Virus record (IMG/VR): IMGVR_UViG_2667527975_000009
Span: 1-47,773 of that record
Strand: one strand, 5' to 3'
DNA length: 47,773 nt
Origin: a virus
Taxonomy: Duplodnaviria; Heunggongvirae; Uroviricota; Caudoviricetes
Positions 3,442 through 47,773 of this stretch are shown here, piece by piece. A program made the translations under genes and the position numbers. The notes under the pieces are model-generated. The model worked only from the letters and a program-made list of their open reading frames with translations, was not told the origin of the DNA and made no database searches. How positions within the stretch are numbered: position 1 is the stretch's first letter; every line of letters starts with the position of its first letter.

Positions 3442-3499
3442 TTAATTTGCTCCAGATACAAGGAATGGCCGCAGTGATGCATTATTAACCAAAAAATAC

Positions 3500-3512: not shown

Positions 3513-3576
3513 TTATTGAGGATGCAACCAGCAGATAATAAGATGCCGATCCACTCACAAGAGCGAGGCATCAAGA

Positions 3577-3828: not shown

Positions 3829-3844
3829 AGGTGGGTCCTATTTA

Positions 3845-4264
3845 TTAGTCTTGCTTTGTTGATGGTATAAGTGATGCATTTGCCTCTTTTGGCTTCAAGG
3901 TATACATCCCACCATTAAATGGATCTACAGCAAGCCAACCAATTAACCCACCAAACACAAGGTTTCCACCAATATACCAACCATTAGCATTGGCTTTGAT
4001 TGGCAAGGTTACTGGCTCGTACCCATCCTTTTCCATAGTGATCTGATAGCTCTTTTTGCCAAAATAACTACCATCTGACTTGGCAAGAGTTACTCCTTGC
4101 GGGGTCTTACCTTGCGCAACAATCACGCCTGATTCGTCTTTTACCTTAAAGCTCGCACCGGAAGGATTGCTGTTCACTTGCACAAGCTGTGTTTCGTCAC
4201 CAACAATAGTTGCGCACCCAGATAACAATATAGCGCCAGCAACGACGCCGATAATCCTCTTCAT
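3845..4264 (-). CDS. Lipoprotein (moron; possible superinfection exclusion)
   Basis: 139 aa with an N-terminal signal peptide and lipobox (AILLSGC); sits between mnt and the ejection-protein genes. Confidence 0.6.
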   Translation of the reverse strand: MKRIIGVVAGAILLSGCATIVGDETQLVQVNSNPSGASFKVKDESGVIVAQGKTPQGVTLAKSDGSYFGKKSYQITMEKDGYEPVTLPIKANANGWYIGGNLVFGGLIGWLAVDPFNGGMYTLKPKEANASLIPSTKQD

Positions 4265-4398
4265 ATTACTTTCCGTTTTGTTAGAATCAGAAAGATCTTA
4301 ATAATAAAAAGTATTTTCGTGAAGATATTGTCGATTGAGTTAATAACTCATTTACACCCAACAGTGCCATGATGGCAAAGATAAGGAGAGTTAATCAT

Positions 4399-4884
4399 AT
4401 GAAAAAATCACTGTTAATTATCCCGCTTCTGCTGGCAGGGTGTGCAAAGGTTAGCGACTATCAGGCAAGTTGCGAACAACGCTATCCAAAGCTTAGCGAT
4501 ATGGCTAATTGCCTTGATGCTAGCGTGAAGAACGACTCACGCATGGCATCAGCACCAACACCTAAGTTATATGTCCTTGCTGCGAAGATGCTCGGGCAGG
4601 GTGTCGATGATGGCAAGATAAGTGACGCGCAGGCAAGACTTGAGCTTCAGAATCTTTATGTTCAATTACAAAGCCAAGAACAAGCCCAACAAATAGCGCA
4701 AAGCCAAGCATTCCAGCAGGCTTTATTGAATTATCAGGCTGTAAACACAATGCAAGCGATCGAGCAAAAAGCGAGACAGCCTGTTATAACTCAACCCTAT
4801 CCAACACGAGTTGACACTTACACAAACTGCAATTCAGGGTTTGGTAATACAGTCACATGCAACAGTAGCAGTAACATCAGATAA
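4399..4884 (+). CDS. Lipoprotein with Q-rich region (moron)
   Basis: Start taken at MKKSLLIIPLLLAGC (lipobox), with AAGGAG about 9 nt upstream; Q-rich central segment; opposite strand to the structural genes. Confidence 0.6.
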   Translation: MKKSLLIIPLLLAGCAKVSDYQASCEQRYPKLSDMANCLDASVKNDSRMASAPTPKLYVLAAKMLGQGVDDGKISDAQARLELQNLYVQLQSQEQAQQIAQSQAFQQALLNYQAVNTMQAIEQKARQPVITQPYPTRVDTYTNCNSGFGNTVTCNSSSNIR

Positions 4885-4974
4885 CAATCAGCAAAGGTAT
4901 CGCCTATGCAGAGGGATACGATAAACCTCGCGTTCTACATATTTGGTTTTTGCACGTTCCTGGTGTTTGCGAAG

Positions 4975-6972
4975 CTATTCTGACAGCGCATCAGACTTAG
5001 CACCCTGAGTCAGGGCGTTAATGACCTTTTGTGCCTGCTGCATGGCTTTCTCAAACGCTGTTGATCCGCGTGGGGTGTTTGCCATTCGGAGCATTGCATT
5101 CCTGAATGGCTCGCTCTCATAGGCGCGAGTAAGAAGTCCGTAGCTTACTGCTGCACCAGTTGTCGCCGGGTTCATTGCCGTCCCATACCCAATAATGAAC
5201 GGGATGGTTTGCTGCCCTGTGGGTGTTGTTACTGCCGCTTTTGCAGCCTGCTGCGTGGATTGCAGGTAGTTTTTCAATCCTTTCAGATAAGCGGCTTCCT
5301 GACCTTTAAATGTGATGCCAGTCTGGTTTTGCAGGATGTTAAGCTGTCGAAGGAACTGGTCAGGGGATCCGCCAGATTTCTCCATCGCCTTTCCAATGAT
5401 GCCATTGCGCATTTGCGCCCTGCCAACACGACCAACTGAGTTATACAGCGTCTTAATTTCCGATTTGTTCTTGCTGAATAGCATGTTGTTGACAACTTCC
5501 GGCGTCAGGTCGCCTTTCATGAGAACATTCTTCAGCCTGGTATTCTTTAGTTTCGCCGCTTCGTCAGCGTAGACGGCATTGGCCTGCTGATATTTACGGA
5601 GAGTATCGTTGCCAAGATTCTGACCAATGGCACCATTGATATCGTCAGTCATTGCCTTGTAAACGCGCTGAATAGCAGCATCGGAACGGTTTGGTAACAC
5701 TGGTCGCTCACCCTTCACGTCCATTCTGAACTGGCTGCGCAGGTCGCTTAATTGCTTCAAATCCAGATTTACCGGACCATCAGGGCCAGCATTGCGAACA
5801 AGCTCATCACGATATGACTGAAGTTTTGAAATTGTCTCGTTATCAGCTACCTTACCAAGCTTCTGCAGATTAGATATCTCAGTATCAATCTGCTGAATTG
5901 CTCGCGCAGGCTGGATATTGACTCCCGCCATTGCATTCTGAACCTGCTCAAGACGGTTCCCTGCGGCACGACGAATTCCTGATGTTTTCGCTTTAAGGCT
6001 GTCAATAACAACCGCTGGATCATACTCACCGAATTTATCGGCAAATCTCTGCACCAACTGGCTTCTCGCTTCCTGTTGCGTTGCTCTCATTCCGCTTGTG
6101 CCAGCCAGAGGGATATTTTCTGCTGTAGTCTGCGCCATTTTTCCGACGCGGGAAGTGGGTTGTAACAGGTCTGTGGTGTGCAGAGGAACTCCTTCACGCT
6201 CTGCAAATCTGATAGCCTGCTGCGCTTCTGGCGCAATAGCACCACTAACGCCACGATAAGCAGCACCTAATCCACGTCCAGCAGCGTTAATAGCGCCGCC
6301 TGCCAGAACGCCAACACCTAAATCGGTGGCGAGGGCTTCCGCATCATCTTTCGCACTATTTGCAGCAAGTGACCCGACTGCGTTTTCAGCGAGAAGGCGA
6401 GTTGCACCCTGAGCGATTCTACCAGCTAGTGTTGGTGCCTGTGCCGCCGCTCTCTCAACGCCAGCAGGAGTGAGGTAAGGCAATGCTTCAGCAAATACCC
6501 TTCCCTCTGTCGTTTGTGGAGTCAGCGCGCCTTGCTGAAGGCCAAAGTCCTGCTCTAATCCCTGCGTTGTTACTCGTGGCGCTGGTTGATATGTACCATC
6601 GCCAATGCCGAGTTTACCGCCAGCCCAAGCCGCCGCGCTTGTTACAGCATCGGCAACTGATGCGGGTATGTTTGCCACGTTCACGCCAGCCTGCACCAGT
6701 CCGCGACCAGTCTCTTTTACTGCTTCGCCAAGATCAGACATAAATCCACTTTGCTGTGGTTGTTGCTGTGCTACTGGTTGCTGTGTCTCCACTTGCTGCG
6801 CAGATGGCAATGGATAGGCAGCATAGAAAGCTTGCTTGGCCTGCTCTGCATTTTCTCCGGCTTGCGGGGCAACGACTTCATTGAAGTATTGCTCCTGAGC
6901 CTGCGCTTTTTGTTCTGGTGCTAACGCCTGATACTGTGGAGAGGCGATAACATCTTTCCATGCTTTAGCCAT
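4975..6972 (-). CDS. Ejection (internal virion) protein, P22 gp16-like
   Basis: 665 aa, last gene in the gp7-gp20-gp16 order; Ala/Gly/Gln-rich composition. Confidence 0.75.
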   Translation of the reverse strand: MAKAWKDVIASPQYQALAPEQKAQAQEQYFNEVVAPQAGENAEQAKQAFYAAYPLPSAQQVETQQPVAQQQPQQSGFMSDLGEAVKETGRGLVQAGVNVANIPASVADAVTSAAAWAGGKLGIGDGTYQPAPRVTTQGLEQDFGLQQGALTPQTTEGRVFAEALPYLTPAGVERAAAQAPTLAGRIAQGATRLLAENAVGSLAANSAKDDAEALATDLGVGVLAGGAINAAGRGLGAAYRGVSGAIAPEAQQAIRFAEREGVPLHTTDLLQPTSRVGKMAQTTAENIPLAGTSGMRATQQEARSQLVQRFADKFGEYDPAVVIDSLKAKTSGIRRAAGNRLEQVQNAMAGVNIQPARAIQQIDTEISNLQKLGKVADNETISKLQSYRDELVRNAGPDGPVNLDLKQLSDLRSQFRMDVKGERPVLPNRSDAAIQRVYKAMTDDINGAIGQNLGNDTLRKYQQANAVYADEAAKLKNTRLKNVLMKGDLTPEVVNNMLFSKNKSEIKTLYNSVGRVGRAQMRNGIIGKAMEKSGGSPDQFLRQLNILQNQTGITFKGQEAAYLKGLKNYLQSTQQAAKAAVTTPTGQQTIPFIIGYGTAMNPATTGAAVSYGLLTRAYESEPFRNAMLRMANTPRGSTAFEKAMQQAQKVINALTQGAKSDALSE

Positions 6973-31637: not shown

Positions 31638-31964
31638 ATGGATGCACAAACACGCCGCCGCGAACGTCGCGCAGAGAAACAGGCTCAATGGAAAGCAGCA
31701 AATCCCCTGTTGGTTGGGGTAAGCGCAAAACCAGTTAACCGCCCTATTCTCTCGCTGAATCGCAAACCGAAATCACGAGTAGAAAGCGCACTGAATCCGA
31801 TAGACCTTACGGTGCTGGCTGAATACCACGAACAGATTGAAAGCAACCTGCAGCGTATTGAGCGCAAGAATCAGCGCACATGGTACAGCAAGCCACGCAG
31901 TGAAATGGGTGTGACTTGTGTTGGTCGACAGAAAATGAAATTAGGCAGCAAACCACTTATTTGA
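31638..31964 (+). CDS. N: Antiterminator N
   Basis: 108 aa, MDAQTRRRERRAEKQAQWKAANPLLVGVSAKPVNRPILSL...; lambda N with an Arg-rich motif. Confidence 0.95.
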   Translation: MDAQTRRRERRAEKQAQWKAANPLLVGVSAKPVNRPILSLNRKPKSRVESALNPIDLTVLAEYHEQIESNLQRIERKNQRTWYSKPRSEMGVTCVGRQKMKLGSKPLI

Positions 31965-36437: not shown

Positions 36438-36714
36438 TCTGCAACTTGCCGTTAAAGGTGAATACTTCGATGCCATGATTCGCGGGGAGAAAACGGAAGA
36501 GTATCGCTTGTGTAATAACTACTGGAATAAGCGAATTATGTTCCGGGAGTATGACCGCCTGATTATCACGAAGGGATATCCGAAGCGCGACGATTCCAGC
36601 CGAAGAATTGACGTCCCGTATGACGGATATGAAATCAAGACAATCACACATCCGCACTTCGGTGATAAACCGGTAAAGGTGTTCGCGATAAAAGTGAATA
36701 TCGGCAATGAATAA
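36430..36714 (+). CDS. ASCH-domain protein
   Basis: GTG start after GGAGG; motif KGEYFDAMIRGEKTEEYR. Confidence 0.5.
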   Translation: MANLQLAVKGEYFDAMIRGEKTEEYRLCNNYWNKRIMFREYDRLIITKGYPKRDDSSRRIDVPYDGYEIKTITHPHFGDKPVKVFAIKVNIGNE

Positions 36715-36773
36715 CAATCCTCGCACTCGCGGGGATTTCTTTTATCTGAACTCGCTACGGCGAGTTTTGTTTT

Positions 36774-37085
36774 ATGGAGATGATTATGGCCTGTTCAACA
36801 TTCAACCCTCTAACGTTACAGAAATACCAGCCAAACCCTGAAGATTTATGCTCACTGCGTGGCGGAAATCATGGTAAATCCGCCATGATCGAATGTAAGG
36901 ACAAAATCCACATTTGCCTTAATTGCGTTGATGTCCTCGTTGATATCAAAAATGAGAGAGAAGATAAAAAGCGTAGCGAGGCTGTTCGCGCCTTAGATTC
37001 ATGGATGCGGGATGGATATAGTGCCGCGCAAATTTATGACTTAGCAATATCAAAAGGTGAAATACCAGGAGTGCGTATCGAATAA
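36774..37085 (+). CDS. Hypothetical protein (last gene of the early-left operon)
   Basis: 103-aa ORF followed by a strong terminator. Confidence 0.5.
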   Translation: MEMIMACSTFNPLTLQKYQPNPEDLCSLRGGNHGKSAMIECKDKIHICLNCVDVLVDIKNEREDKKRSEAVRALDSWMRDGYSAAQIYDLAISKGEIPGVRIE

Positions 37086-37127
37086 GACGTAACCAATATT
37101 CGAATTGAAGAACTGAAAGAACACCAA

Positions 37128-37150
37128 GCCGCCTGATGGCGGTTTTTTAT
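37128..37150 (+). terminator. Intrinsic terminator at the end of the early-left operon
   Basis: GCCGCC-TGAT-GGCGGT followed by TTTTTTAT. Confidence 0.8.
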
Positions 37151-37158
37151 TGCCTGAT

Positions 37159-37174
37159 TTGCAGGTTCGATTCC
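37159..37174 (+). other. tRNA T-arm-like motif (candidate att core / junction of the two elements)
   Basis: TTGCAGGTTCGATTCC contains the canonical GGTTCGAnTCC T-loop motif, but the flanks do not fold into a tRNA; it lies between the prophage terminator and the alpA-int module. Confidence 0.5.
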
Positions 37175-37193
37175 CTATTCGGAGATAGCACTC

Positions 37194-37394
37194 ATGCAAC
37201 ACGAACTACAGCCTGATTCACTGGTTGATTTGAAATTCATCATGGCCGATACTGGCTTCGGTAAAACCTTCATCTATGACCGGATTAAGTCCGGCGACCT
37301 GCCAAAAGCCAAAGTTATCCACGGGCGAGCAAGATGGTTATATCGTGACCATTGTGAATTCAAAAATAAGCTCTTAAGCCGCGCCAATGGGTAA
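37194..37394 (+). CDS. AlpA/Vis-like excisionase or regulator (MerR-like HTH)
   Basis: 66 aa; the pattern ...IMADTGFGKTFIYDRIKSGDLPKAKVIHGRARWLYRDHCEF... fits AlpA-family proteins. Confidence 0.7.
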   Translation: MQHELQPDSLVDLKFIMADTGFGKTFIYDRIKSGDLPKAKVIHGRARWLYRDHCEFKNKLLSRANG

Positions 37395-37642
37395 AATAGC
37401 GGGTAAAACATTTCTCACATCTAAAAAATACCATTCCAATCAATCCCCTGCCGCTTCAAGTAGATGTCTGCAGGGGACACCATGAACACTTCTCACTAAG
37501 TTCAATTAATTCCATAACTCACTGTTTTAACTGATATCATCTCCTTATACTCGTCCAGCAAAGTACCATTATTTCTAATGGAATCTATACATCTTTGCGT
37601 ATAACATTGTGTATAACTGAGTTCGATCTTTTTTCTATACAC

Positions 37643-38818
37643 ATGCTGCTATCTGACATCCAAATAAAAAGAGCAAAACCGAAGGACAAACCCTATACGC
37701 TTAACGATGGTATGGGGCTATCACTCCTGATCGACACAGCGGGCAGTAAAGGCTGGCGTTTTCGCTATCGCTTTGCAGGTAAGCCTAAGATGATTTCCTT
37801 TGGCGTATATGGCGATGTGTCGTTGGCACAGGCACGTACCAAACGTGATGAAGCGCGTTCGATGTTAGCCAACGGGATAAACCCAAGTGAAGCCAGAAAA
37901 GCAGATAAGATTGCTTTGCAGTTCGCGCATGAGAACAGCTTTGAGTCTGTGGCCAGAGAATGGCACTCATCGAAAAAAGCCACCTGGTCAGAGGGTTATG
38001 CAAAAGAGGTTCTCAATTGTATGGAAAAGGATATTTTTCCTTTTATCGGCCAGCGCCCAATTGAGCAGATTGAACCATTAGAACTGCTAACCGTCCTGCA
38101 AAAAATAGAGAAAAGAGGTGCGCTAGAGCAAACCAGTAAGATCCGCCGCCGCTGTGGTGAAGTGCTTCGTTATGCTGTTGCCACTGGTAGAGCAAAGTAT
38201 AATTTTGCACCCGATTTAGCTATCGCACTCAACAAACCTAAAACCCAACACTTCCCGTTCCTGACTGAAAGCGAGTTGCCCGAGTTCGTTAATGCTCTGG
38301 ATAACTATCAGGGCAGTTTAGTTACCAAATACGCCACGCAGCTGTTGATGCTAACAGGCGTGCGAACAATTGAACTACGTGCAGCGGAATGGGCTGAGTT
38401 TGATTTAGATAATGCCTTATGGGAGATCCCCAAAGAACGGATGAAGAAACGCCGCCCCCATCTGGTTCCGTTATCAACTCAGGCGATCAATATCCTGAAA
38501 AAGCTGCAAGAAATAACAGGGAATTACAGCCTCGTTTTCCCTGGCCGGAATGACGTCAGTAAACCAATGAGCGAAGCCAGCATCAACAAAGTGATAAAAC
38601 TACTGGGTTATCACGGTCGGTTAACGGGTCACGGTTTCAGGCATACCATGAGCACCATCTTGCATGAGCATGGGTTTGAAAGTGCCTGGATTGAAATGCA
38701 GCTTGCGCATGTTGATAAGAACTCTATTCGAGGTACTTACAATCATGCGCAATATATTAAAGATCGACAAGTAATGATGGAATGGTACGCTAGCTTATTA
38801 AATACGACCTGCTATTAA
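37643..38818 (+). CDS. int: Tyrosine integrase, P4 type (second integrase)
   Basis: Start taken at the internal Met (MLLSDIQIKRAKPKDKPYTLNDGMGL...); homologous to but clearly distinct from the integrase at 1..1158. Confidence 0.9.
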   Translation: MLLSDIQIKRAKPKDKPYTLNDGMGLSLLIDTAGSKGWRFRYRFAGKPKMISFGVYGDVSLAQARTKRDEARSMLANGINPSEARKADKIALQFAHENSFESVAREWHSSKKATWSEGYAKEVLNCMEKDIFPFIGQRPIEQIEPLELLTVLQKIEKRGALEQTSKIRRRCGEVLRYAVATGRAKYNFAPDLAIALNKPKTQHFPFLTESELPEFVNALDNYQGSLVTKYATQLLMLTGVRTIELRAAEWAEFDLDNALWEIPKERMKKRRPHLVPLSTQAINILKKLQEITGNYSLVFPGRNDVSKPMSEASINKVIKLLGYHGRLTGHGFRHTMSTILHEHGFESAWIEMQLAHVDKNSIRGTYNHAQYIKDRQVMMEWYASLLNTTCY

Positions 38819-39748
38819 ATCCAGCATGAAACAAATATGGTGAGTAATTTGATACTGTTTGTTTTTTGGCAACCCAGGGAAATGCCTTACAGTTGGTTGA
38901 CTATTGTAATAATAATAGTTAAGACCAATGTTGCTGCCAAACTGGGTTGGATGTTGGGGAACAAGATTTGTAATTTGATCTGAAACATCTAAAAATTTTG
39001 CAGTAACATTTGAACTTCCTCGTTGCGTGTTGCTTGATACAAAATGACGAATCCAAACTGTATTCGCTTGTAAATTCTTGAACACCAAATGTGCGGCAAC
39101 AGCAGAAGGTTGACCACCTCCAAGATCTAGTACCTGGCCAGTAATTGTATAATCGCCAAATCCTAAGTAATTTTGTCCCACGAATTGATGTGCGTGCGTG
39201 AAAAGTTCCGGCCCATTATAATCAGCATTTTTTGCTAACTTTCTAAAGTTATCGCTAATAATAATTAACTTCGACAAAGGAAGAAGAGCGCACTGATTAG
39301 GAAGCATTTTATTATTTAAAACAACATGATAACTAATCAATTGATTTGTCGCCAACAACTGAATATCAGAGTTGGATAATGATGGATTATCATATAGAAG
39401 TGCAACTCGTCTATTTAAGTTAGCATTCAACCAATTATTAATATCATTAATCGTTGTATTGGGCTGAATAAGATATCCAGAGATGATATTATTTTTATTT
39501 GTTAATACACTTGATAAATTTTGATTTAAAGTTAAGACGTTATTGTGTGAAGAAAAATCTTCCTGATAAGGATTAAGGATAACAATTATGTCAGAATTCC
39601 AAACATTTAAACATGTTAATAAATTTCTCGTATTGACGTTAATTGGTTCTAAAATTGGTAGCAGACCATTTAGGCTAACTCCCTTCGCAACGAGGTCCCT
39701 AAGGCATAATAACTCTGTACTTCTCGCATACAAATATGGGCTATACAT
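38798..39748 (-). CDS. Cargo protein B (unknown function; AT-rich accessory gene)
   Basis: 316 aa, Asn/Leu/Ser-rich, low GC; second gene of a two-gene operon, and its 3' end overlaps the 3' end of int by 21 bp. Confidence 0.7.
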   Translation of the reverse strand: MYSPYLYARSTELLCLRDLVAKGVSLNGLLPILEPINVNTRNLLTCLNVWNSDIIVILNPYQEDFSSHNNVLTLNQNLSSVLTNKNNIISGYLIQPNTTINDINNWLNANLNRRVALLYDNPSLSNSDIQLLATNQLISYHVVLNNKMLPNQCALLPLSKLIIISDNFRKLAKNADYNGPELFTHAHQFVGQNYLGFGDYTITGQVLDLGGGQPSAVAAHLVFKNLQANTVWIRHFVSSNTQRGSSNVTAKFLDVSDQITNLVPQHPTQFGSNIGLNYYYYNSQPTVRHFPGLPKNKQYQITHHICFMLDLIAGRI

Positions 39749-39769
39749 AACTTACAACTCCTGAGGATA

Positions 39770-40651
39770 TCAACAAATTTTAATTTTTACATCCATCAAA
39801 TTCATGATGAATTCTTTTTGCTTTCTTGATAATGGTGTTGCATAACCTAAAACACGTAAACATGCTGGAAGAGAATAAATATAATCCAAAAAAACTTTAT
39901 CGTTACATCTTTTTTTCATAGCAGAGATAAAGTATTTATTTGCTATGTTTAATGGCATCTGCATGAATATCTCTTTACAATATTCATAAACCAATCCGTT
40001 AGGCATATTTATTTTAGTTGAAGTGTAATCTTCTATTATAGCTAAGAACTCTTCCTTTCTAAGAACTGAAAACAAGCTGTCACTTTTAATATAATCAATA
40101 TTTGAATCTGCCTCCTTAATGACACTCAATTGATCTTTTTTATTCAAAACCATAACTCCCACTCTGGGGAGATTTAAAGCACAATATTTACTTGCATACT
40201 CTGGATGTGTAACTATATACACTTTATCAAAAACATCCAAATAATCAGGGGCTTGAGTAATCAACCTTTTTGGTGAATCATACTCTGTCTTAATCTCGTA
40301 AGCTGTAGACGTACCATTAAACACCGCAACATCCACTATAGAGTTTTTAATTGGTAACTCTATGGACGACGAACTTGTTTTTGGGCTGTGCTTACCGAAT
40401 ATTATTTTATTGACAAGTGCTGTCTTATAAACATATTCATTTCTATAATTCAGACGCAAAAAATCATATAATGATGTAAATAAATCCCTTAGTGAAATCT
40501 CATGTTCATTATTATCATTGTTTGAAAACAGTGTTTCATAGCAGTAAGAATCAAAACTCCCAAATAAATCCGAAATATCCTTACCTTTTGCTAAGGATGA
40601 AAAAATGGGGCGACGGAAAAATTTAGCATATTCCTTTTTATTATGACTCAT
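39770..40651 (-). CDS. Cargo protein A (unknown function; possible PD-(D/E)xK nuclease-like motif)
   Basis: 293 aa, AT-rich; contains ...SIVDVAVFNGTSTAYEIKTEYD..., which resembles a D...E-x-K nuclease core. Confidence 0.7.
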   Translation of the reverse strand: MSHNKKEYAKFFRRPIFSSLAKGKDISDLFGSFDSYCYETLFSNNDNNEHEISLRDLFTSLYDFLRLNYRNEYVYKTALVNKIIFGKHSPKTSSSSIELPIKNSIVDVAVFNGTSTAYEIKTEYDSPKRLITQAPDYLDVFDKVYIVTHPEYASKYCALNLPRVGVMVLNKKDQLSVIKEADSNIDYIKSDSLFSVLRKEEFLAIIEDYTSTKINMPNGLVYEYCKEIFMQMPLNIANKYFISAMKKRCNDKVFLDYIYSLPACLRVLGYATPLSRKQKEFIMNLMDVKIKIC

Positions 40652-41332
40652 TACTCATACTCTATAAACATCATGCAATTTGATAAGTTATGACGAATTC
40701 TCACCATCCAGTTACTACCTGTATACATACTAATCAAAAAAAACGAGTACGCAAGATACGAAAGTACTTTTCTTGTTCACCAGTTAGCTTACCTTGATCC
40801 TCACCAGCGACTGGAAGATAGGTAGCAGTATATGTGGAAACCTTCCCCTAGCTAGGTCTACAAACGTAGTTTGGGCATTTAGGCTCCACGATTCACGGTT
40901 TGACACGGCCTGATATCTGCACATTCGTTTTGATATGCAGCAATCGTGAAAAAGGAAAATATACGCTCGACAGACCAAAACGGCACTACACCGCACCCGC
41001 CTGCGGTTTTCATATCACTAAAAATTTTCAGCCTGGATTTTTTACAAACGATACCGCCAGTCCGTGCCAGTCCTCGAGATGTACTGCGATACAGGAACTG
41101 AAAAGAATGAAAAGAAATTCATTTTTTTTCAGTTTTACTGTCCGTCGAATCTATGGCCTGAATACGCAACTCTATGATATTAAATGGATAATTAATTTTA
41201 GGTGTGTGATTTTATGAAGGTTTGTGAAACATGAAGAAGATAACCAGTTGAAAAATAATAATTTTATGACCGTATAAACTGAAATCCTGTGTTCAGGTTC
41301 CGGGAACAGATCGGCCATTCCCGACGCATACT

Positions 41333-41605
41333 TTACCCATTCTTTTGCGCAGCCAGCAGCAACTTTAAAGCCTTTTCCCGTTCCTCGGGTGGAATTGCAT
41401 CAATCAGCTCTTTAACCCTTCCCTGCCCGTTCAGCGCGCTTGGACTAACGGAATGGGAGAAAGCAACATTCATCACAAACGAGTGACCGCACTCCACATT
41501 AGAGCAATAGCAGTACACATCGTACAGTTGTGGGTGTTTCCTGTTTGTTTTACCTATCCGTGCTACTGCCTGACATGTGGGGCAGTACATTCTCATCATC
41601 TTCAT
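41333..41605 (-). CDS. Ogr/Delta-family zinc-finger transcriptional activator
   Basis: 90 aa with C-x2-C...C-x4-C (MYCPTCQAVARIG...CYCSNVECGHSF). Confidence 0.8.
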   Translation of the reverse strand: MKMMRMYCPTCQAVARIGKTNRKHPQLYDVYCYCSNVECGHSFVMNVAFSHSVSPSALNGQGRVKELIDAIPPEEREKALKLLLAAQKNG

Positions 41606-41679
41606 CGTTCTGTGCCCTATACTGTTGCCCGCCAGAAGAAGGGATTTGGATCCCTACCTCTTGTTCTGAACGTGTAACA

Positions 41680-41862
41680 CTGGTAACACGTGTAACGCTA
41701 TTGATTTAAAAGGATTTAATCTGTTACCAGTTAGCAAAATCAAGAGGTAACGCGTGGTAACACACCATTTTTTGTTACCTCTGTTACCAGTCAGTATTTT
41801 TGACTGGTAACACTGAAGAACCGCATCAGTAACGGGTGTTACCTCTGTTACCAGTGTTACCT
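41680..41862. repeat. Iteron array (TGTTACC / GGTAACA, at least 10 copies in both orientations); putative satellite ori
   Basis: Visible directly, for example CTGTTACCAG four times, GGTAACAC and GTGTTACCTC, immediately downstream of the primase gene. Confidence 0.65.
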
Positions 41863-41887
41863 CATAAAAATAAGACTCACGCGATAA

Positions 41888-44575
41888 TCACTCAGGTTCA
41901 GCGCTTCCCAGTACCTGTGTATTGAACTGGTACACACGTTTAAGCCCTATTTCTGGCAGGCGAATGCTGTTTTGCGTCCGGCCATCTTCACCGGGTTTCA
42001 GCCAGCCCGCGTCCACACACAACCTGGCCACCTTACGCGAGTCAAATCCCTTACAGATCTCCTTCCAGCCTGACGGGAGAACGTAGAACGTCACAACCGG
42101 CTCTGTCACGTTGTCTCCTTTATCGACTTTTCTGAATCCCATCATTGAAACAGGCCGGTTCCTGTCGTCATTCCAGTCAGCAAACCGACTGAACTGATTA
42201 CGCGTCATGAAGTCCCGAACCTGTTCAAGTGCCGCTTTATCTTCCTGATTAGCTGTATGGCCCCGGTCAGCCATCCATGCAGCCAGACAGCTTTGAGCGG
42301 CACGAAAGGCCTCTCCCTCCGGCCATCCTGTGATGCCCGCTTTTGTGGCCAGCTCCCCGGCCATCGCAACCAGAGCAAAACGGGTAACAGCCCGGCCAAC
42401 CTGATTCCCGGCATTTTCCGGCGTCAGCCTTCGGGTATACTCTTTCAATAAGGCTTTCGCCTGACTGGTCAGTTCCGGCAGATCAGCGGTCAGGCAATAC
42501 AGCCAGTCGCGGAATGGTGCACCATGATAATGCGCTACGTGCTGCTCAAGATGCTCAGCCAGGGTTTTCCCGCTACTGAAGCCATGAAGTTCTTCAAACA
42601 CGCCATACTTGCCCGAATCGCTTGGGATCTGGATCATTCTGACCTCAACCCCGGCATACGTACGTTCCCCGGCGCTTGCCGCATGCTCTACCAGTGACAG
42701 TTCCCCGGTAGACAGAAACAACAGATTCCAGCGGTTGGTTTCCCTTACCGAACCATCTGTTCTGGCTCTGGCTTTGCCCTGCCCGTTAGCCAGCATATAA
42801 GCGATATTTCCCGCCTCCCTGCCGTCAACCTCCCGGATTTCATCCAGCATCAGCGTGGCATCATTGCGGCGGCTCGCCGTTCCTTCTAAGGCATTCCCCG
42901 TCGCCCGCCACGTATGCCAGAAATCTGTTCCACCACATACTGATGCAGCCACTTTCATCGTCGTGGTTTTACCGTCTGTGGATTCCCCTTTGAGGTGATA
43001 ACCTCCACCGCCGATACCAACCAGTTTCAGAAGGGGGGCAGCAAATGCCAGACTCACCGCAAAGGCAAGACGGGCATTCTTTATGCAATAACGGCCTATA
43101 TTTTCACGCCAGCCCTCTGATGTGCCGCTGACACGAAAATCACGCCCCTGCACACTCGATGTTTGTAAGATGACTGACTGGGCTTCGCGCCCTATCACTT
43201 CATCCTGGAGAACGTAAACCCCGCCGTGCCAGCCAGTTTTATTCACACAGGTTACTTTTCTGTCCGGTTTACACAGCGAGATATATTCCATCAGGAATGC
43301 TCTGGCCATGCCGTTAATGTTGATGTAAGAAAGCCCGTTAACCAGCAGAACGCGGCGCAGTTCTTCCCCGCTACCGCCCAGCATCTCCATCGGCATTGCC
43401 CATTTACGGCTGTTTCCGTTGGTATCTTCCCATTCCAGCAAACGCCCGTAATTACTTCCATCAGCATCACTGGTGATTGCCGTCACCCGCAACGGACTGC
43501 AAATTTTGATATTACGTATCTCTGTATCACCATCAGACTTATTAACCAGCTTGTCGTACCACAAATATTCTTTTGTCAGCCGGAACCCTTCTGGTAAACG
43601 GGTCTGCCCTTTGCCATGCAGCGTCATTTCTTCACGAAAGGCATCTCTCGCCCGTTCTTTCCCCACTTCCTGCCGATAATCATCCCAGTCAGCCTTATGG
43701 CGTACCGGAGGGAGCGTTACCCAGCCATCCACCGCTTTGGCGGCTTTCTCTGCCTGAATACGCCCGGTGTTTTCTTTGCCGTCAGCCAGATCATTATCTC
43801 CGGCCAGAATGATCCGGGTTTCCGGCCAGCGTTTTCGGATCTGCTCCGTCACCTTCAGTAAATTGGTGGCAGCGACAGCCGCCACGATCCATCCTTCAGT
43901 CAGCAGACTGACGGTAAGCGCCGTGGCAAAACCCTCAGTGATAATCACCTGTTCAGGTGTTTCAGCGGGTATATCGGTCAGGGCAATGAATGCGCCAGAC
44001 AGCTGGCTACCGGGCAGCAGACTTTTATCCCCGTCAGGATTGATAAGCTGGCCACCAGTAATATTCCCGGAAATATCCGTCAAAGGCAGCAGTAATGAAC
44101 CGGTGGAAAATGTTATTCCGGCCAGATTCAAAGGCTGTGACAGCAAGGGAAGTGAATACCCGTGTAAGCTCTTATTTGTCAGATAGACCGGCTCACCATT
44201 GCAGGACTGCTGTCTGAGTCTGGTATATCGCTCCGCGCCCGCTTCTTTTCCTGCGGCCTTTTTCCTGGCTGGCAATGCGGGCTTCTCCTGTATTTCTGGT
44301 AATGCAAGCGCCTCAGATACCATCCCGGCGACTTCTTTTATCTTTCTTCCTGTCACCAGACGAACCAGATCAAGACCATCGCCATGACCGCACTGATTAC
44401 AAAACCACGTCCCTCGCCCCGCTTTATCGTCCAGTCGAAAACGATCTTTTCCACCACAGGCAGGGCAAGCCCCATGATGTCCTGCGGACGGTACTTTAAT
44501 ACCTAATGCTGACAGGATATAAGGCCAGCGCCCAATTGCAGCTCCGGAAATCGTGGATACAGACGGTGTTTTCAC
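41888..44575 (-). CDS. Primase-helicase (P4 alpha-like)
   Basis: 895 aa with an N-terminal Zn-ribbon (CPACGGKDRF...CNQCGHGDG), a TOPRIM-like region (IITEGFATAL...AGDNDLADG) and Walker A motif GESTDGKTT. Confidence 0.9.
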   Translation of the reverse strand: MKTPSVSTISGAAIGRWPYILSALGIKVPSAGHHGACPACGGKDRFRLDDKAGRGTWFCNQCGHGDGLDLVRLVTGRKIKEVAGMVSEALALPEIQEKPALPARKKAAGKEAGAERYTRLRQQSCNGEPVYLTNKSLHGYSLPLLSQPLNLAGITFSTGSLLLPLTDISGNITGGQLINPDGDKSLLPGSQLSGAFIALTDIPAETPEQVIITEGFATALTVSLLTEGWIVAAVAATNLLKVTEQIRKRWPETRIILAGDNDLADGKENTGRIQAEKAAKAVDGWVTLPPVRHKADWDDYRQEVGKERARDAFREEMTLHGKGQTRLPEGFRLTKEYLWYDKLVNKSDGDTEIRNIKICSPLRVTAITSDADGSNYGRLLEWEDTNGNSRKWAMPMEMLGGSGEELRRVLLVNGLSYININGMARAFLMEYISLCKPDRKVTCVNKTGWHGGVYVLQDEVIGREAQSVILQTSSVQGRDFRVSGTSEGWRENIGRYCIKNARLAFAVSLAFAAPLLKLVGIGGGGYHLKGESTDGKTTTMKVAASVCGGTDFWHTWRATGNALEGTASRRNDATLMLDEIREVDGREAGNIAYMLANGQGKARARTDGSVRETNRWNLLFLSTGELSLVEHAASAGERTYAGVEVRMIQIPSDSGKYGVFEELHGFSSGKTLAEHLEQHVAHYHGAPFRDWLYCLTADLPELTSQAKALLKEYTRRLTPENAGNQVGRAVTRFALVAMAGELATKAGITGWPEGEAFRAAQSCLAAWMADRGHTANQEDKAALEQVRDFMTRNQFSRFADWNDDRNRPVSMMGFRKVDKGDNVTEPVVTFYVLPSGWKEICKGFDSRKVARLCVDAGWLKPGEDGRTQNSIRLPEIGLKRVYQFNTQVLGSAEPE

Positions 44576-44982
44576 AGCAGCACCTCCTGACCTTCCGGCT
44601 TCACAAATTCAAAACCTTCGGGTAGTTCGCCATCAGGTGCTCCGAAAATAATATCCCGGTAAACCTCACGCATCTCTGTGACACCAAAAACTGACAGGCG
44701 AATATTTTCTGACATAAAGCCTGGTTTAAGCATTTTTTCCAGTTTCTCTGCGGCCAGTATGCAACCAGCATCAGCCCCAAACTCATTCACCCACGGCATT
44801 TCAATATGGTAAATAATATTACTCACCACTTTTTCGTGGGAGAGTTCTATTCGTTCGCCATCTTCAATATAAACAGGTTCATTATGAACACGCACCATTA
44901 AGGAAATGAATGCATCAGCAATGTAGTAGCGTAAGACTGCTGTTCGTAAAGCATGCGCCTTTAAATTTTGATTATTATTCAT
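44572..44982 (-). CDS. Hypothetical protein (primase operon)
   Basis: 136-aa ORF overlapping the primase start by 4 nt. Confidence 0.55.
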   Translation of the reverse strand: MNNNQNLKAHALRTAVLRYYIADAFISLMVRVHNEPVYIEDGERIELSHEKVVSNIIYHIEMPWVNEFGADAGCILAAEKLEKMLKPGFMSENIRLSVFGVTEMREVYRDIIFGAPDGELPEGFEFVKPEGQEVLL

Positions 44983-45211
44983 CGCGCATCACTCCCTTAA
45001 TTGTGCTGGTTTCCTTAACAACGCCATCCAGTTGTTCGGCAATACAGGCCACTAAAGCCGCAGCGCCTTCCGCTGAAACAGTTCTCGCTCCATTCACTGT
45101 GGGCACGGACAAGACCTCTGCAAGAAACTCACTGGCCAGTGCCGCCCGTAACAGACGACTCTCCCCCTGTTCACTCAATATGCAGCCTTGCTTAAAATTC
45201 ATGGATTTCAT
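44975..45211 (-). CDS. Hypothetical protein (primase operon)
   Basis: 78-aa ORF, coupled. Confidence 0.5.
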   Translation of the reverse strand: MKSMNFKQGCILSEQGESRLLRAALASEFLAEVLSVPTVNGARTVSAEGAAALVACIAEQLDGVVKETSTIKGVMRDE

Positions 45212-45411
45212 GCAACCACCTCCCCGGCTCTTTTCACAGGGATACGGGCAGCAAAGCTCAGGATAAATTCAGTGGCAAGTTTAAGGCGTGCAGCATGCTC
45301 GCATTCTGCGATTACACGCACAGGGCGTGGACGGGCATCACGGTCTGTACGGCGGACAGCCAGAAAGACAAAGGTAAATTCAGGGTGAGATAAAGCAGGG
45401 ACTGTAGCCAT
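45208..45411 (-). CDS. Hypothetical protein (first gene of the primase operon)
   Basis: About 67 aa from MATVPALSHPEF with GAAGGAGG 8 nt upstream; the longer 196-aa ORF upstream is low-complexity. Confidence 0.45.
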   Translation of the reverse strand: MATVPALSHPEFTFVFLAVRRTDRDARPRPVRVIAECEHAARLKLATEFILSFAARIPVKRAGEVVA

Positions 45412-45630
45412 AATGGCAACCTCCTTCAGATAGCGGGTAACGCTACCACCGGAGTTCCTACGCTCATGGGTGGTAGCCCAGACGGGGGTAGGAATACCGG
45501 CTCTGAAGGATACCGGCCAGCCCGAAAGCTGCCCCGCCTGGACTACCATAATTCTGATGATGTGGCGTAAAAAATAAAAAAATACAATCAGCCACCACAC
45601 CATAAATTTTAGGTGAGTCAAAGCTGCGAC

Positions 45631-45655
45631 ACAAAAAAACACGCCTAGCGCGTGT
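45631..45655 (-). terminator. Intrinsic terminator or attenuator in the leader upstream of the primase operon
   Basis: On the minus strand, ACACGC-GCTAG-GCGTGT followed by UUUUUU. Confidence 0.6.
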
Positions 45656-45848
45656 AGTATCGCCTTCAGATAACACGGGTTCCTACGCCCGGCTGCCGAT
45701 TTTGCGGCAACCTTTAAACTATATCCCGCGCATTCCTGGTGAGGCAAGAAATTTATAACCGAAAACTGATCATTGCCTGGATTAATTAACGCTGGCATGC
45801 TTAAGCCTCTGCTTAAAAATAGTTCTTCATTTTTCCTGATGCTGTAAA

Positions 45849-45875
45849 CGAGACCCGCCTCTGAGCGGGTCTTTC
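45849..45875 (-). terminator. Hairpin after the 334-aa gene
   Basis: GACCCGC-TCAGA-GCGGGTC followed by a weakly T-rich tail. Confidence 0.4.
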
Positions 45876-45885
45876 TGTCGCTAAG

Positions 45886-46890
45886 TCAATCCGCAAACGT
45901 CAGGGTGCACTCATCAACAGCCGCGTACAGTTCAGGTTCACCGAGTGCATAACCTTCATTGCGCAGGTAGGAATGCACGTATTCACTGCTTTCATCATCA
46001 AACTCAGCACGAAACCAGCGTGTTATCGCCTGAGTGTAAATATGCAGATTATCCAGCGTCGTTACTGCCAGACGCTTACCCGGCATAAACGGGGGAATAA
46101 ACGCAAAGCGGCCAGCAACAGAACTTGTAGCCATCTGTGCCGCATTCACATCAGACGGGCGGTCTGCGGCATTAAATAACTTCAGGCGTTGATGTGCTGC
46201 CAGCTCTGCCCCAACCAGTACAACCAGACGAGGATCTTCACGAAACTGCTCAGCAATAAGCTCTGTAATCAGATGGTTGGCCAGAGCATCAATATTTTTC
46301 CAGGTGCCAGTCTCTCCCAGAGTGACAGGCTCAGAGATGATTTGCTTTCCGTTCCCGTAGGCTTTCGCCAGTGCATGCCAGCCAATATTGACATCCTCGC
46401 CTTTTTTATTGATTTCCGGGTTTGTAGTATTTGCAATCGACACACCGTTGAAACCGACCCGCAGCATGTCCAGCGCATATGCCTGGGCAAAAAAGCTCTC
46501 AACCGTTTTCTCAAACTCATCCGGCACGCCGGTATGGTAAATATGAGACATATCGGAATAGCTGATCCGGGCGCAGGTATCCGTCTCTGTCAGAAAGAAC
46601 TCCGTACCATTGATTGCCATTTTTTTGTGGAAACGGCCACCATCCACACGTCCGGTATACAGTTCACTGGCACCAATATTGACGGCATTACCTGACACGG
46701 CGTTAACATCACGTAGGGTAATATTTTTAATAAGCCACCCGGATTCCAGAATTGAGGTACGCAGTATATTTTCAGTAGGTTCGCTTAATGCAAAGCGTCT
46801 GTTTGATTCTTCCTGATAGTTAGTGCCAGTGACGAATTTATTATGATAACGACGTGCTGCGTCCGGCCTTTCAGTTTTGAAGGCATACAT
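45886..46890 (-). CDS. Putative P2-family major-capsid-like protein (uncertain)
   Basis: 334 aa; the segments GFNGV..., EDPRLVVLVGAELAA and TLDNLHIYT resemble P2 GpN as I recall it. Not verified. Confidence 0.35.
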   Translation of the reverse strand: MYAFKTERPDAARRYHNKFVTGTNYQEESNRRFALSEPTENILRTSILESGWLIKNITLRDVNAVSGNAVNIGASELYTGRVDGGRFHKKMAINGTEFFLTETDTCARISYSDMSHIYHTGVPDEFEKTVESFFAQAYALDMLRVGFNGVSIANTTNPEINKKGEDVNIGWHALAKAYGNGKQIISEPVTLGETGTWKNIDALANHLITELIAEQFREDPRLVVLVGAELAAHQRLKLFNAADRPSDVNAAQMATSSVAGRFAFIPPFMPGKRLAVTTLDNLHIYTQAITRWFRAEFDDESSEYVHSYLRNEGYALGEPELYAAVDECTLTFAD

Positions 46891-46912
46891 AGTTTTTCAC
46901 CTTTTTAAGTAT

Positions 46913-47773
46913 TTAAGAAAAGATTTTATTTTTGTACTCAGTAACCAGATTGTATTTCATTACATGCTCAACATAATCCCGGTCACTTACGACTGAACGT
47001 AATACATAATTATCTGCTCGATAGTACTCCCTGTAAGCCATAGCTCTTGCCATTCCACCGTTATTTAATACATAACGATCAGTTGGAACGCTACAACGAC
47101 TAATAATTTCACTCACGGAATCAGATAAAGACTTGAGTGCATCAGTAATAAATTTAATATCACGGACAACGTCACTGTCATTAAATACAGAAATAAAATC
47201 AGCAGGGATCTGGCCGGATTGAGGAAATATATTCAGTAAACGCTTATCGATTCCCTTCCCAATGTAGTTTCCTTCATCGGCCAGTACTCCCGGCAAAAGC
47301 TTGATCGTGCTCAATCGACTATGTTGTTCATTCAACCGGGAAACAGCCAGATGGTAATACCGTTCAGCATCCGCTCGTTCAGCATGCCCCATTTTATTCG
47401 TTTTGGCTTCAGCAATGCTACTGACGCCGTTTTTTGAGAATGTGCTTTTCCATGCAACTTCCGCATTTGTCACTTCACGCTGCCGGAAAGATAACTCTTC
47501 CTCTTCCTGACGACACAACTGGGCATAACGGCTCAGGAGCAGGTTGATCTCATTCGCCACAGTTTCCGTATCAGGTACTGTTAACCCCGTAAGTGAATAC
47601 AGCTTTTCACCTTTAGCTCGCAGCTTATTCAGTGAATATATTTCAATAATACGCACAATACAGGCCGTGTCGCTATGAGTCTCTTTAAATGATCTTACTT
47701 TGTAACTATCTAACACCGACACATGTTCGTTCTTAATTGATGCCAATTTCTTCTTAAAAACATTGTCAACCAT
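46913..47773 (-). CDS. Hypothetical protein
   Basis: 286-aa ORF whose ATG sits at the window edge; coiled-coil-like central region. Confidence 0.5.
   Translation of the reverse strand: MVDNVFKKKLASIKNEHVSVLDSYKVRSFKETHSDTACIVRIIEIYSLNKLRAKGEKLYSLTGLTVPDTETVANEINLLLSRYAQLCRQEEEELSFRQREVTNAEVAWKSTFSKNGVSSIAEAKTNKMGHAERADAERYYHLAVSRLNEQHSRLSTIKLLPGVLADEGNYIGKGIDKRLLNIFPQSGQIPADFISVFNDSDVVRDIKFITDALKSLSDSVSEIISRCSVPTDRYVLNNGGMARAMAYREYYRADNYVLRSVVSDRDYVEHVMKYNLVTEYKNKIFS

Follow-up and report, generated by a model that had tools for sequence, protein, structure and literature searches.

Integrative elements of the argW locus

The tRNA gene argW is the target of a group of elements that includes KplE1 (CPS-53), Sf6, HK620, and Kapi1, and the core sequence has been published for all four (PMC2951348; PMC8787464). 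For KplE1, excision at this core was shown experimentally to depend on IntS and TorI, and torI is experimentally established as the recombination directionality factor (RDF) of the integrase IntS (PMC2951348 and PMC3509656). The arm-type sites of IntS share the motif TAAA, and the torI promoter, PtorI, has been called "non-characterized" (PMC2951348). In vitro, a 135-bp attR is enough for excision, and the primer on its phage side is placed at the 3' end of torI (PMC3509656). The argW-dsdCXA variable island is described as a hypervariable locus in a reference cited in PMC8787464.

We analyzed a 47,773-nucleotide viral record from IMG/VR (IMGVR_UViG_2667527975_000009), referred to below as the window. 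It lies in the argW-dsdC hotspot of Escherichia coli and contains two independent integrative elements in tandem. From sequence comparison, we read these as an Sf6/P22-like prophage and a P4-like satellite that follow one another at argW and share a junction core at 37468-37483, with a probability of about 0.9. Taken as a whole, this arrangement is ordinary and for the most part known. A preliminary description of the same DNA had proposed two tandem elements targeting one tRNA gene, and this gene proved to be argW. The prophage extends from intS to torI, and the satellite extends from int2 onward, past the end of the window. The features that define the two elements and their junction are the following.

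1-1158, plus strand: intS, integrase gene of the Sf6/P22-like prophage, paired with torI at the opposite prophage end
37194-37394, plus strand: torI, excisionase (RDF) of the Sf6/KplE1-type prophage, 66 amino acids, phrog_66
37468-37483, plus strand: hybrid att site with the 16-bp core CTGCAGGGGACACCAT, attR of the prophage and attL of the satellite
37643-38818, plus strand: int2, encoding the satellite's P4-type integrase (Arm-DNA-bind_3, Phage_int_M, and Phage_integrase domains)

Like other tandem arrays of the argW-dsdCXA island, the locus combines several elements with one tRNA-derived core repeated at each junction. Every occupancy state of argW was found among E. coli genomes, including the satellite alone in strain SK1144 and KplE1 alone in K-12. 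The pairing of prophage and satellite is rare: 13 of 5,426 complete E. coli genomes harbor the phage followed by the satellite, and 6 (for instance strain D6) harbor the reverse order, with the satellite preceding an intS element. Since the prophage occupies the tRNA side, it was probably the later arrival and the satellite was probably resident first, an order suggested by position only.

Position of the junction between prophage and satellite

The core CTGCAGGGGACACCAT corresponds to argW nucleotides 61-75 plus a T. Homology to Sf6 and other argW phages runs up to position 37483, and the Sf6 record has its attP core annotated at the equivalent position. Conversely, genomes that carry the satellite and no prophage match the window from 37468 onward, with a tRNA-Arg gene directly upstream. 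Because the phage-side and satellite-only matches overlap by 16 bp, and because this overlap is the published core, we place the junction there. One genome matches the window perfectly over the queried interval (36700-39000); in it, the core occurs in argW upstream of intS, at the hybrid site, and just before dsdC. The first of these copies shows that the core is duplicated at both ends of the prophage; argW lies 161 bp upstream of intS, so that attL and argW are found just upstream of window position 1. The third copy, outside the window, marks the end of the satellite.

The preliminary description had put the junction elsewhere, at a 16-mer resembling a tRNA T-arm (37159-37174), and had regarded the AlpA-like gene and the integrase that follow it as the recombination module of the second element. 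The 16-mer is indeed an exact match to the T-arm of argW, and it directly follows a terminator and the mosaic boundary at which 933W-type homology ends (around 37151). However, in the free phage Sf6 the 16-mer and torI run without a break into the attP core and intS, KplE1 of K-12 carries the 16-mer without any satellite, and satellite-only genomes, which match from 37468, lack both torI and that copy of the 16-mer. In addition, the 16-mer is not repeated at the right border of the satellite, and torI is the established RDF of IntS (PMC2951348 and PMC3509656). These comparative data already refute the earlier placement, to which we now attach next to no probability. Across the loci that cover the borders, argW itself and the stretch ahead of torI were the only places with the 16-mer; it is CTGCAGGGGACACCA(T) that recurs at the borders, with its window copy at 37468-37483. 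By sequence comparison, the junction is therefore located about 300 bases (approximately 310 bp) downstream of the T-arm-like motif, past the small gene; the earlier position was too far left by this distance.

On either side of the shared core, both elements have retained arms of their own, so separate excision is expected: the phage is predicted to leave by means of IntS and TorI, and the satellite by means of int2.

Recombination module of the prophage

IntS has Arm-DNA-bind_3, Phage_int_M, and Phage_integrase domains and is 98% identical to the integrase of Sf6 (gene 16, gp16). TorI is 100% identical to TorI of K-12 and matches PDB entry 1Z4H, the Tor inhibition protein; RefSeq labels 37194-37394 as torI in the genome identical to the window over 36700-39000. 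The prophage thus possesses both an IntS-type integrase and a TorI-type RDF. In free Sf6, the order is the 16-mer, gene 18 (the torI homologue), the attP core, and the integrase, without interruption. As attP sits between the excisionase and integrase genes, integration leaves intS on the argW side and torI at the distal end of the prophage, and the two genes are accordingly found at opposite ends here.

Downstream of torI, the P arm contains a pair of short repeats.

37389-37396 and 37401-37408, plus strand: two direct repeats of GGGTAAAA, candidate IntS arm-type sites

Distant relatives have conserved these repeats downstream of the torI stop codon. Overall, the module is the one described for KplE1, Sf6, HK620, and Kapi1: the core and TorI are identical, IntS is 98% identical to that of Sf6, and the gene order, the P-arm sequence, and the 16-mer upstream of torI are all the same. 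No difference was seen within the module. What differs is the host-side flank of attR, which here is a P4-like satellite, so that the right junction is a phage/satellite hybrid, whereas it is a phage/host junction in the described elements. The body of the prophage is a mosaic and differs from that of Sf6 beyond the recombination module.

The preliminary description was right that a small gene and a P4-type integrase follow the 16-mer. The small AlpA-like gene is torI, however, and on the sequence comparison it belongs to the P22/Sf6-like prophage and not to the second element; of the two genes, only int2 belongs to the satellite. Hence, the alternative raised in that description, in which both genes go with the P22-like element, holds for torI and not for int2.

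The P4-like satellite

The remainder of the window is made up of satellite sequence, with the following features in addition to int2.

37484-37642, plus strand: left arm of the satellite upstream of int2, identical to the sequence after argW in SK1144
37598-37605 and 37610-37617, plus strand: (C/T)GTATAAC repeats in the left arm, candidate arm-type sites
38798-47773, minus strand: satellite body with sce7725, sce7726, ogr/Delta, a DUF927 primase-helicase gene, an Icd-like gene, a P2-type capsid gene, and a 286-amino-acid ORF

The genes of the body were assigned from protein family matches and RefSeq annotation. Int2 is 45% identical to IntS, and its gene directly adjoins argW in many prophage-free E. 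coli genomes. Repeats similar to those of the left arm (GTGTATAAC and GTGTATAG) are present at the right end of the satellite, which continues past the end of the window as far as a 20-bp repeat ahead of dsdC. This repeat, ATTCCTGCAGGGGACACCAT, is found at both ends of the satellite in SK1144 and in locus L001, where the right-end copy is at 31809-31828.

The element shares several traits with P4-like satellites. It has a P4-type tyrosine integrase beside a flanking, tRNA-derived direct repeat and is an element of about 11 kb between 20-bp direct repeats. Its 895-amino-acid protein combines Zn_Ribbon_Prim, Toprim_3, and DUF927 domains, as in the alpha primase-helicase of P4, and its 90-amino-acid protein has an Ogr_Delta domain, giving an alpha-type primase-helicase together with a Delta/Ogr zinc-finger regulator and an Icd-like protein. 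The variable low-GC gene pair beside the integrase is reminiscent of the P4-like satellites that carry a defense-gene hotspot. In contrast to P4-like satellites, this one encodes a P2 gpN-type major capsid protein. No match to Sid or Psu was obtained among the satellite ORFs scanned, which were part of all its ORFs.

A second argW-derived sequence upstream of torI

The left edge of the recombination module, where the 16-mer is located, was analyzed together with the end of the preceding operon.

36774-37085, plus strand: last gene of the early-left operon, homologue of Sf6 gene 19 and 933W L0063, phrog_3680
37126-37151, plus strand: intrinsic terminator that closes the early-left operon, with an 8-bp stem (5 G-C pairs), a 4-nucleotide loop, and a T-run
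37159-37174, plus strand: T-arm-like 16-mer TTGCAGGTTCGATTCC, identical to argW nucleotides 46-61
37164-37174, plus strand: central 11-mer GGTTCGATTCC, which includes the pentamer GTTCG (37165-37169)
37181-37184, plus strand: GGAG, Shine-Dalgarno sequence of torI, 6 nucleotides past the 11-mer and 9 nucleotides ahead of the ATG

A strong terminator closing this operon had been noted before (at 37128-37150), and its hairpin is the first helix of the minimum-free-energy RNA fold. Homology with 933W and other Stx phages stops at its end, at about 37151, so a mosaic boundary falls there. In other phages with torI, the terminator hairpin found at this position is a different one. Given the presence of an N gene and the logic of lambdoid phages, the terminator upstream of torI probably silences the excisionase during lysogeny, until it is passed by N-antiterminated transcription from PL.

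The 16-mer ends 19 nucleotides before the torI start codon. Its resemblance to the T-arm of argW, which the preliminary description had suggested, is exact when compared to the annotated tRNA-Arg of strain SK1144. A chance match would be conceivable in that genomes contain many T-loop sequences and these are short. Nevertheless, only about 0.001 exact matches of at least 16 bases are expected per whole window, and in 200 shuffles the longest match was usually 10 to 12 bases and never reached 16. Moreover, the match is to the phage's own target tRNA, in the same orientation, ends in tRNA coordinates at the exact point where the core begins, and is conserved in many related phages. A chance origin is thus effectively refuted, and we regard its probability as negligible. 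Within the window, TTGCAGGTTCGATTCC is present once, and the only other resemblance, a 3-mismatch match at 32223, is within chance expectation.

No tRNA gene was detected by ARAGORN in the whole window, in line with the earlier remark that no tRNA can be folded at this site, and no Rfam tRNA match was found for the region at E values up to 10. The 3' half of the T-stem is missing at 37140-37200, where CCCTA stands in place of the CCTGC of argW. A tRNA gene or pseudogene at 37140-37200 was rejected on the ARAGORN and Rfam results, and the weak Rfam matches to STnc130 (25 bits, compared to a gathering score of 55), STnc420, and isrK were set aside as driven by the terminator.

The 16-mer is carried by the DNA of Sf6 and Kapi1 and by KplE1 of K-12, which adjoins no satellite, and IMG/VR yielded 26 distinct upstream contexts, every one of which contains it. 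Since it occurs in these elements, it is not a product of tandem integration, and we conclude from its distribution that it is a phage-borne part of the recombination module and not an att core. It is also unnecessary for recombination in vitro, where the 135-bp attR suffices (PMC3509656). Among the 5,426 E. coli genomes, no argW 5' sequence was fused through the 16-mer to torI; the 16-mer was therefore rejected as an active site of recombination or deletion.

[quoted passage not shown] The difference here is a second, nonadjacent argW piece beyond the RDF gene: the 16-mer (nucleotides 46-61) and the core (61-75) abut in tRNA coordinates and are 293 bp apart in the window. An origin solely by insertion of torI into a 30-bp attP was not adopted because, in relatives, the left copy reaches CCTG, the left flank of the core is itself T-loop-like, and the copies overlap. 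No description of a second argW piece upstream of an RDF gene was found in the literature searched, and the 16-mer as an unbroken string was absent from the papers searched. The motif may nevertheless have been described already, since the KplE1 att papers (JBC 2007, Virology 2010, and PNAS 2013) were outside this search.

Conservation of the 11-mer and its possible role

The 11-mer in the center of this region is near-invariant in Escherichia, Citrobacter, Enterobacter, Serratia, Pantoea, Edwardsiella, Hafnia, and a Cedecea-type torI allele. Its pairwise identity is 0.96, an estimate biased by the anchoring of the sequences on the motif, compared to 0.38 to 0.43 for the flanks and 0.58 for the third-codon positions of torI. 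The spacing between the 11-mer and GGAG is 5 to 7 nucleotides (6 in most) and is kept in 7 of 8 aligned motif-bearing relatives. Across Enterobacterales, the 11-mer was found in about 11 of about 24 torI lineages sampled; as about half of the lineages do without it, it is dispensable. A pattern scan of viral contigs for the motif followed by a Shine-Dalgarno sequence and an ATG mostly returned true phage tRNA genes and contributed two extra torI lineages.

We read the 16-mer as a tRNA-derived fossil that may have been retained as a cis-element. That its 11-mer acts in cis on torI expression, for example as a binding site of TorI or IntS, is a tentative proposal, which we would sooner bet against than for. 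The broader version appears doubtful to us; here, argW-targeting phages throughout Enterobacterales would have co-opted a piece of their target tRNA gene, the 11-mer before the Shine-Dalgarno sequence, as a conserved cis-regulatory element that controls the excisionase. The 11-mer might be an operator for TorI or IntS, as it resembles their known sites and the attB half-site; alternatively, it might be a leader RNA element. TorI sites have been inactivated by mutating the pentamers GTTCG, GATCG, and GTCCG (PMC2951348), and the 11-mer contains one GTTCG. This single copy is weak evidence for TorI binding because the G[TA][TC]CG class is common (4.8 per kb, counting both strands). In one lineage (L127), the leader is nearly the same and the RDF is only weakly TorI-like (phmmer E value, 4.5e-15), so a mosaic boundary sequence fits better than an RDF-specific operator.

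Another explanation is that the 16-mer is a neutral, functionless fossil, either of an ancestral attP tRNA segment (argW 46-75) or of an old att duplication, and that its apparent conservation stems from recent horizontal spread of a boundary sequence. We consider this a real possibility, though short of even odds. It accounts for the exact abutment of 16-mer and core in tRNA coordinates, and in relatives the sequence to the left of the core is T-loop-like (TTCGATGTaTGCAGG); torI would therefore lie between two incomplete direct copies of the tRNA 3' region, as after an old att duplication. Loss of the motif in about half of the lineages, the label "boundary sequence" given to the region in the Sf6 record, and the common leader before a very different RDF in L127, which indicates recombination at the boundary, all agree with it. 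On the other hand, the 11-mer has stayed 0.96 identical while the adjoining bases and the synonymous sites of torI diverged (0.38 to 0.58), the spacing to the Shine-Dalgarno sequence has been kept as well, and decay should not spare exactly these 11 bases across so many lineages.

It is unlikely, in our view, that the region is instead a CII-dependent, pI-type promoter reading through torI and attP into intS, or an RNA leader that masks the Shine-Dalgarno sequence of torI. CII half-sites have the form TTGC-N6-TTGC. The prophage encodes a CII-family protein, a pI-type promoter is annotated in the Sf6 and HK620 records, with the 28 bp equivalent to this region marked "pI; possible integrase expression promoter" in Sf6, and TTGC-N5-TTGC at 37150-37162 resembles the CII half-sites. 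However, the TTGC spacing is 5 and not 6, the repeat is absent from several motif-bearing lineages (L093, L096, and L099), and a consensus scan detected no sigma-70-type promoter in 36700-37750, so that such a promoter near the motif was rejected. As for an RNA leader, in the minimum-free-energy fold UUCGA from the motif is base-paired with UCGGA, which overlaps the Shine-Dalgarno sequence, and UUCC:GGAG is the only consensus helix obtained with RNAalifold. Yet this helix of 4 bp amounts to only -0.68 kcal/mol over 8 lineages and shows no compensatory changes, and Rfam returned no match above threshold; a conserved RNA structure around the motif is thus unsupported by the 8-lineage alignment.

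Implications for the argW locus and the IntS/TorI family

The main result of this analysis is a correction: the boundary between phage and satellite is repositioned, and torI is reassigned to the right element. This bears on how prophage and satellite boundaries are called at the hypervariable argW-dsdC locus. For the IntS/TorI family, it means that a neighboring excisionase and integrase can come from different elements, and adjacency of the two genes is therefore no evidence that they belong together. The sole point that goes past the literature covered is the second argW piece upstream of torI, which is carried by the phage and selectively conserved. If the 11-mer is functional, it bears on the control of torI expression and hence on the switch that decides excision in this family; as an operator or a leader element, it would couple the synthesis of the RDF to the state of the recombination proteins.

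The prophage-satellite junction lies at the argW attachment core

The junction was located by two BLAST searches with positions 36700-39000 as the query. In Sf6 and many argW prophages, the match to the window stops at 37483. In many E. coli genomes, it begins at 37468, with a tRNA-Arg gene directly to the left. The bases common to both sets of matches, 37468-37483 (CTGCAGGGGACACCAT), have been published as the KplE1, Sf6, and HK620 core (PMC2951348), and the core of Kapi1 is the identical sequence plus one base (PMC8787464). An attP core is annotated at the equivalent position in the Sf6 record. In E. coli SK1144, argW leads directly into the sequence that the window has from 37484 on; the same integrase gene and those behind it come next. 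A genome identical to the window over 36700-39000 harbors three copies of the core: one inside argW, upstream of intS; a second at the site equivalent to 37468-37483; and a third 11 kb beyond the second, just before dsdC. The second element is thus bracketed by copies 2 and 3 and has a 20-bp direct repeat of its own (ATTCCTGCAGGGGACACCAT). The preliminary description had correctly recognized two elements in tandem but had misplaced their junction at a T-arm-like 16-mer upstream of this core; the biology of such arrays is already known.

Features of the region 36800-38000 (all on the plus strand; from sequence reading unless stated otherwise)
ending at 37085: 103-aa gene
37126-37151: G+C-rich hairpin (8 pairs, 5 of them G-C) and T-run (terminator scan)
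37159-37174: 16-mer TTGCAGGTTCGATTCC
37181-37184: GGAG
37194-37394: 66-codon open reading frame (torI)
between the 66-codon and integrase frames: AT-rich spacer
from 37643 (likely start ATG): integrase open reading frame (int2)

As described before, a terminator precedes the 16-mer and the site harbors no tRNA, ARAGORN detecting no tRNA gene in the entire window. The 16-mer is present in a single copy in the window, the sole other match having 3 mismatches and being within chance expectation. The enterobacterial small RNA family STnc130 gave a weak Rfam match on the minus strand at 37117-37244 (25 bits versus a gathering score of 55; E value, 0.07 to 0.2), which covers the full model length in antisense orientation to the 16-mer and the torI start and stops at the terminator hairpin. 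This match is probably driven by the hairpin.

torI belongs to the prophage and int2 to a P4-like satellite

The 66-aa protein is 100% identical to K-12 TorI (structure, PDB 1Z4H), the experimentally established recombination directionality factor (RDF) of the KplE1 integrase IntS (PMC2951348, PMC3509656), and the integrase at 1-1158 is 98% identical to that of Sf6. In free Sf6 DNA, the 16-mer, gene 18 (the torI homolog), the attP core, and the integrase gene are contiguous. The KplE1 family has an unusual module in which attP lies between the RDF and integrase genes, and after integration these genes are found at opposite prophage ends (PMC2951348; PMC8787464 for Kapi1). Because of this identity, the Sf6 integrase match, and the shared organization, torI is the last gene of the P22/Sf6-like prophage and not, as had been proposed for this small AlpA/Vis-like gene, the first gene of the next element. 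The recombination module of the window is the same as that of KplE1, Sf6, and HK620 in all sequence-level defining features examined. Just after intS, the region 1001-5000 has a GC content of 0.40 to 0.44 versus about 0.5 in the rest of the prophage and contains a tailspike gene (1267-3441). In Sf6-like phages, this region is the usual place of O-antigen-modification or host-range cargo.

The second integrase, Int2 (37643-38818), is 45% identical to IntS. After its gene come sce7725 and sce7726, genes for an Ogr/Delta zinc-finger protein and for a primase-helicase (Zn-ribbon, Toprim, and DUF927 domains), an Icd-like gene, and a P2-type capsid gene. Together, int2 and the genes behind it constitute a P4-like satellite, to which the element corresponds in its integrase, alpha-type primase, and Delta/Ogr protein. 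In the region 45886-47773 (minus strand), the product of the capsid gene is a major capsid protein of the P2 gpN type (Phage_cap_P2; E value, 1e-66). The adjoining 286-aa open reading frame had no NCBIfam or PHROG match, and neither Sid nor Psu was recognized among the open reading frames scanned. With a capsid gene of its own, a P4-like satellite may carry out capsid remodeling differently from P4.

The sce7725/sce7726 pair (38798-40651, minus strand), directly after the satellite integrase gene, has a low GC content (0.33 to 0.35 versus about 0.5 in the prophage). The sce7726 protein matched the PADLOC model 'cll' (E value, 1e-18), and the sce7725 protein had no PADLOC match. P4-like satellites have a variable defense hotspot, and the position of the pair agrees with it. 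The sequence GTTCGATC (37621-37628), 15 to 22 nt ahead of the satellite integrase ATG, has the 7-mer GTTCGAT in common with the motif upstream of torI and holds GTTCG on one strand, with GATCG on the opposite strand. Either an RDF-type site or chance could account for it.

Based on the sequence and the work on KplE1, IntS and TorI would recombine the core at 37468-37483 with the one on the argW side, which lies beyond the window. Both the phage P arm (37395-37467, with two GGGTAAAA repeats) and the P' arm are intact, and the 16-bp core would preserve the right half-site although satellite DNA replaces host DNA beyond it. Phage excision would then bring argW and int2 together in the SK1144 configuration. 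The terminator ahead of torI and the N gene encoded by the prophage suggest that torI could be expressed upon induction by antiterminated read-through.

The 16-mer derives from argW but is not a product of tandem integration

Using the annotated tRNA-Arg of SK1144 as the argW reference, we found that the 16-mer is identical to nucleotides 46 to 61. It starts in the last part of the variable loop, takes in the 5' T-stem and the T-loop, and stops two bases into the 3' T-stem. Exact matches to argW in 200 shuffled windows usually peaked at 10 to 12 bases and never reached 16. The T-arm match proposed earlier is thus real. In tRNA coordinates the 16-mer (46-61) and the core (61-75) abut, so the phage carries the last 30 nt of argW in two parts separated by 293 bp that include torI and the P arm. 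In relatives, the left copy continues to CCTG and the left flank of the core is T-loop-like (TTCGATGTaTGCAGG). Judged by sequence, the arrangement resembles an old att duplication, with direct copies of the tRNA 3' region that overlap, more than a clean split. The piece upstream of torI is the sole aspect that we did not find described in the literature searched, a scope outside which the primary KplE1 att papers fell, and we do not claim novelty for it.

The 16-mer had been proposed to be a hybrid att core. This is ruled out by its presence in Sf6 DNA, Kapi1 DNA, and K-12 KplE1; tandem integration did not create it. Among torI loci in IMG/VR, it occurs in 26 of 26 distinct upstream contexts, always just after a terminator T-run. 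Excision of KplE1 in vitro was carried out with a 135-bp attR substrate that begins at the torI 3' end (PMC3509656), so the 16-mer is dispensable for recombination in vitro. Furthermore, argW fused via the 16-mer to torI was found in none of 5426 E. coli genomes, indicating that the 16-mer does not act as a live recombination site in these genomes. The KplE1 attL-KpnI primer ends in ...GCTAATTGCAGGTTCGATTCC (PMC3509656, methods), and its last 16 bases match perfectly upstream of torI (37159-37174), a second priming site in any strain carrying the module.

A conserved 11-mer upstream of torI

Upstream of their torI homologs, about 11 of about 24 lineages retain the central 11-mer of this motif (GGTTCGATTCC); they come from Escherichia, Citrobacter, Enterobacter, Serratia, Pantoea, Edwardsiella, Hafnia, and contigs with a Cedecea-type torI allele. 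Among motif-bearing sequences, its pairwise identity is 0.96, an estimate biased by the anchoring on the motif through which they were picked, versus 0.38 to 0.43 for the adjoining flanks and 0.58 for torI third-codon positions. The spacing to the Shine-Dalgarno sequence is likewise preserved, which, together with the divergence around the 11-mer, argues for selection on it. Two contigs labeled as Actinomycetes (L092) and Parachlamydiaceae (L109) MAGs carry enterobacterial-type torI modules (85 to 92% identity, argW core) and are probably mis-binned or contaminating.

Several roles can be considered. The 11-mer might bind TorI, since it contains GTTCG, a pentamer belonging to those whose mutation served to inactivate TorI sites (PMC2951348), but this pentamer class is common (4.8 per kb). 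It also has the same sequence as the attB half-site to the left of TGCAGGG, the presumed overlap, and might be a core-type half-site for IntS, although the overlap itself is inferred from an imperfect inverted repeat (GATGTC/GACACC) on either side. A CII-dependent pI promoter, as annotated in the Sf6 record, is a further candidate, but a sigma-70 promoter scan found none and the TTGC repeat is not conserved. Finally, a leader RNA could mask the torI Shine-Dalgarno sequence, a pairing visible in RNA folds, albeit with negligible energy and no covariation.

A regulatory role of the 11-mer, to which we give roughly one chance in three, has to be weighed against a functionless fossil. In locus L127 (IMG/VR 3300011892_000028, reverse strand), an argW-core module encodes an RDF only weakly matching TorI (phmmer E value, 4.5e-15), with P-arm repeats GGGCATA instead of GGGTAAAA, whereas its leader (TTGCCTGGCTTCCAGGTTCGATTCCCAAACCGGAGATAAAACCC) is nearly equal to those of Citrobacter-type modules. 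A far more divergent RDF behind an almost unchanged leader indicates, at the sequence level, a mosaic joint formed by recombination right at the RDF start codon, in agreement with the label 'boundary sequence' in the Sf6 record. Because of this, we consider the fossil about as probable as the regulatory role.

The two elements occupy argW independently

The argW-dsdC locus is variable in tandem occupation (reference cited in PMC8787464). Among complete E. coli genomes, every occupancy state was found, and the two elements are independent: the satellite alone beside argW (SK1144 and many others), KplE1 alone (K-12), the order of the window with the phage before the satellite (13 of 5426 genomes), and satellite then intS element (6 of 5426). 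In strain D6, checked for the last order (L239, 2024-23463), argW is followed by the satellite, core, intS, a degraded KplE1-like prophage, torI, core, and dsdC. In both arrays inspected closely, that of D6 and that of the genome identical to the window over 36700-39000 (L001), the tRNA-side element is the more intact one, which fits with newcomers using the tRNA-proximal site. If so, the prophage of the window would have arrived after the satellite.
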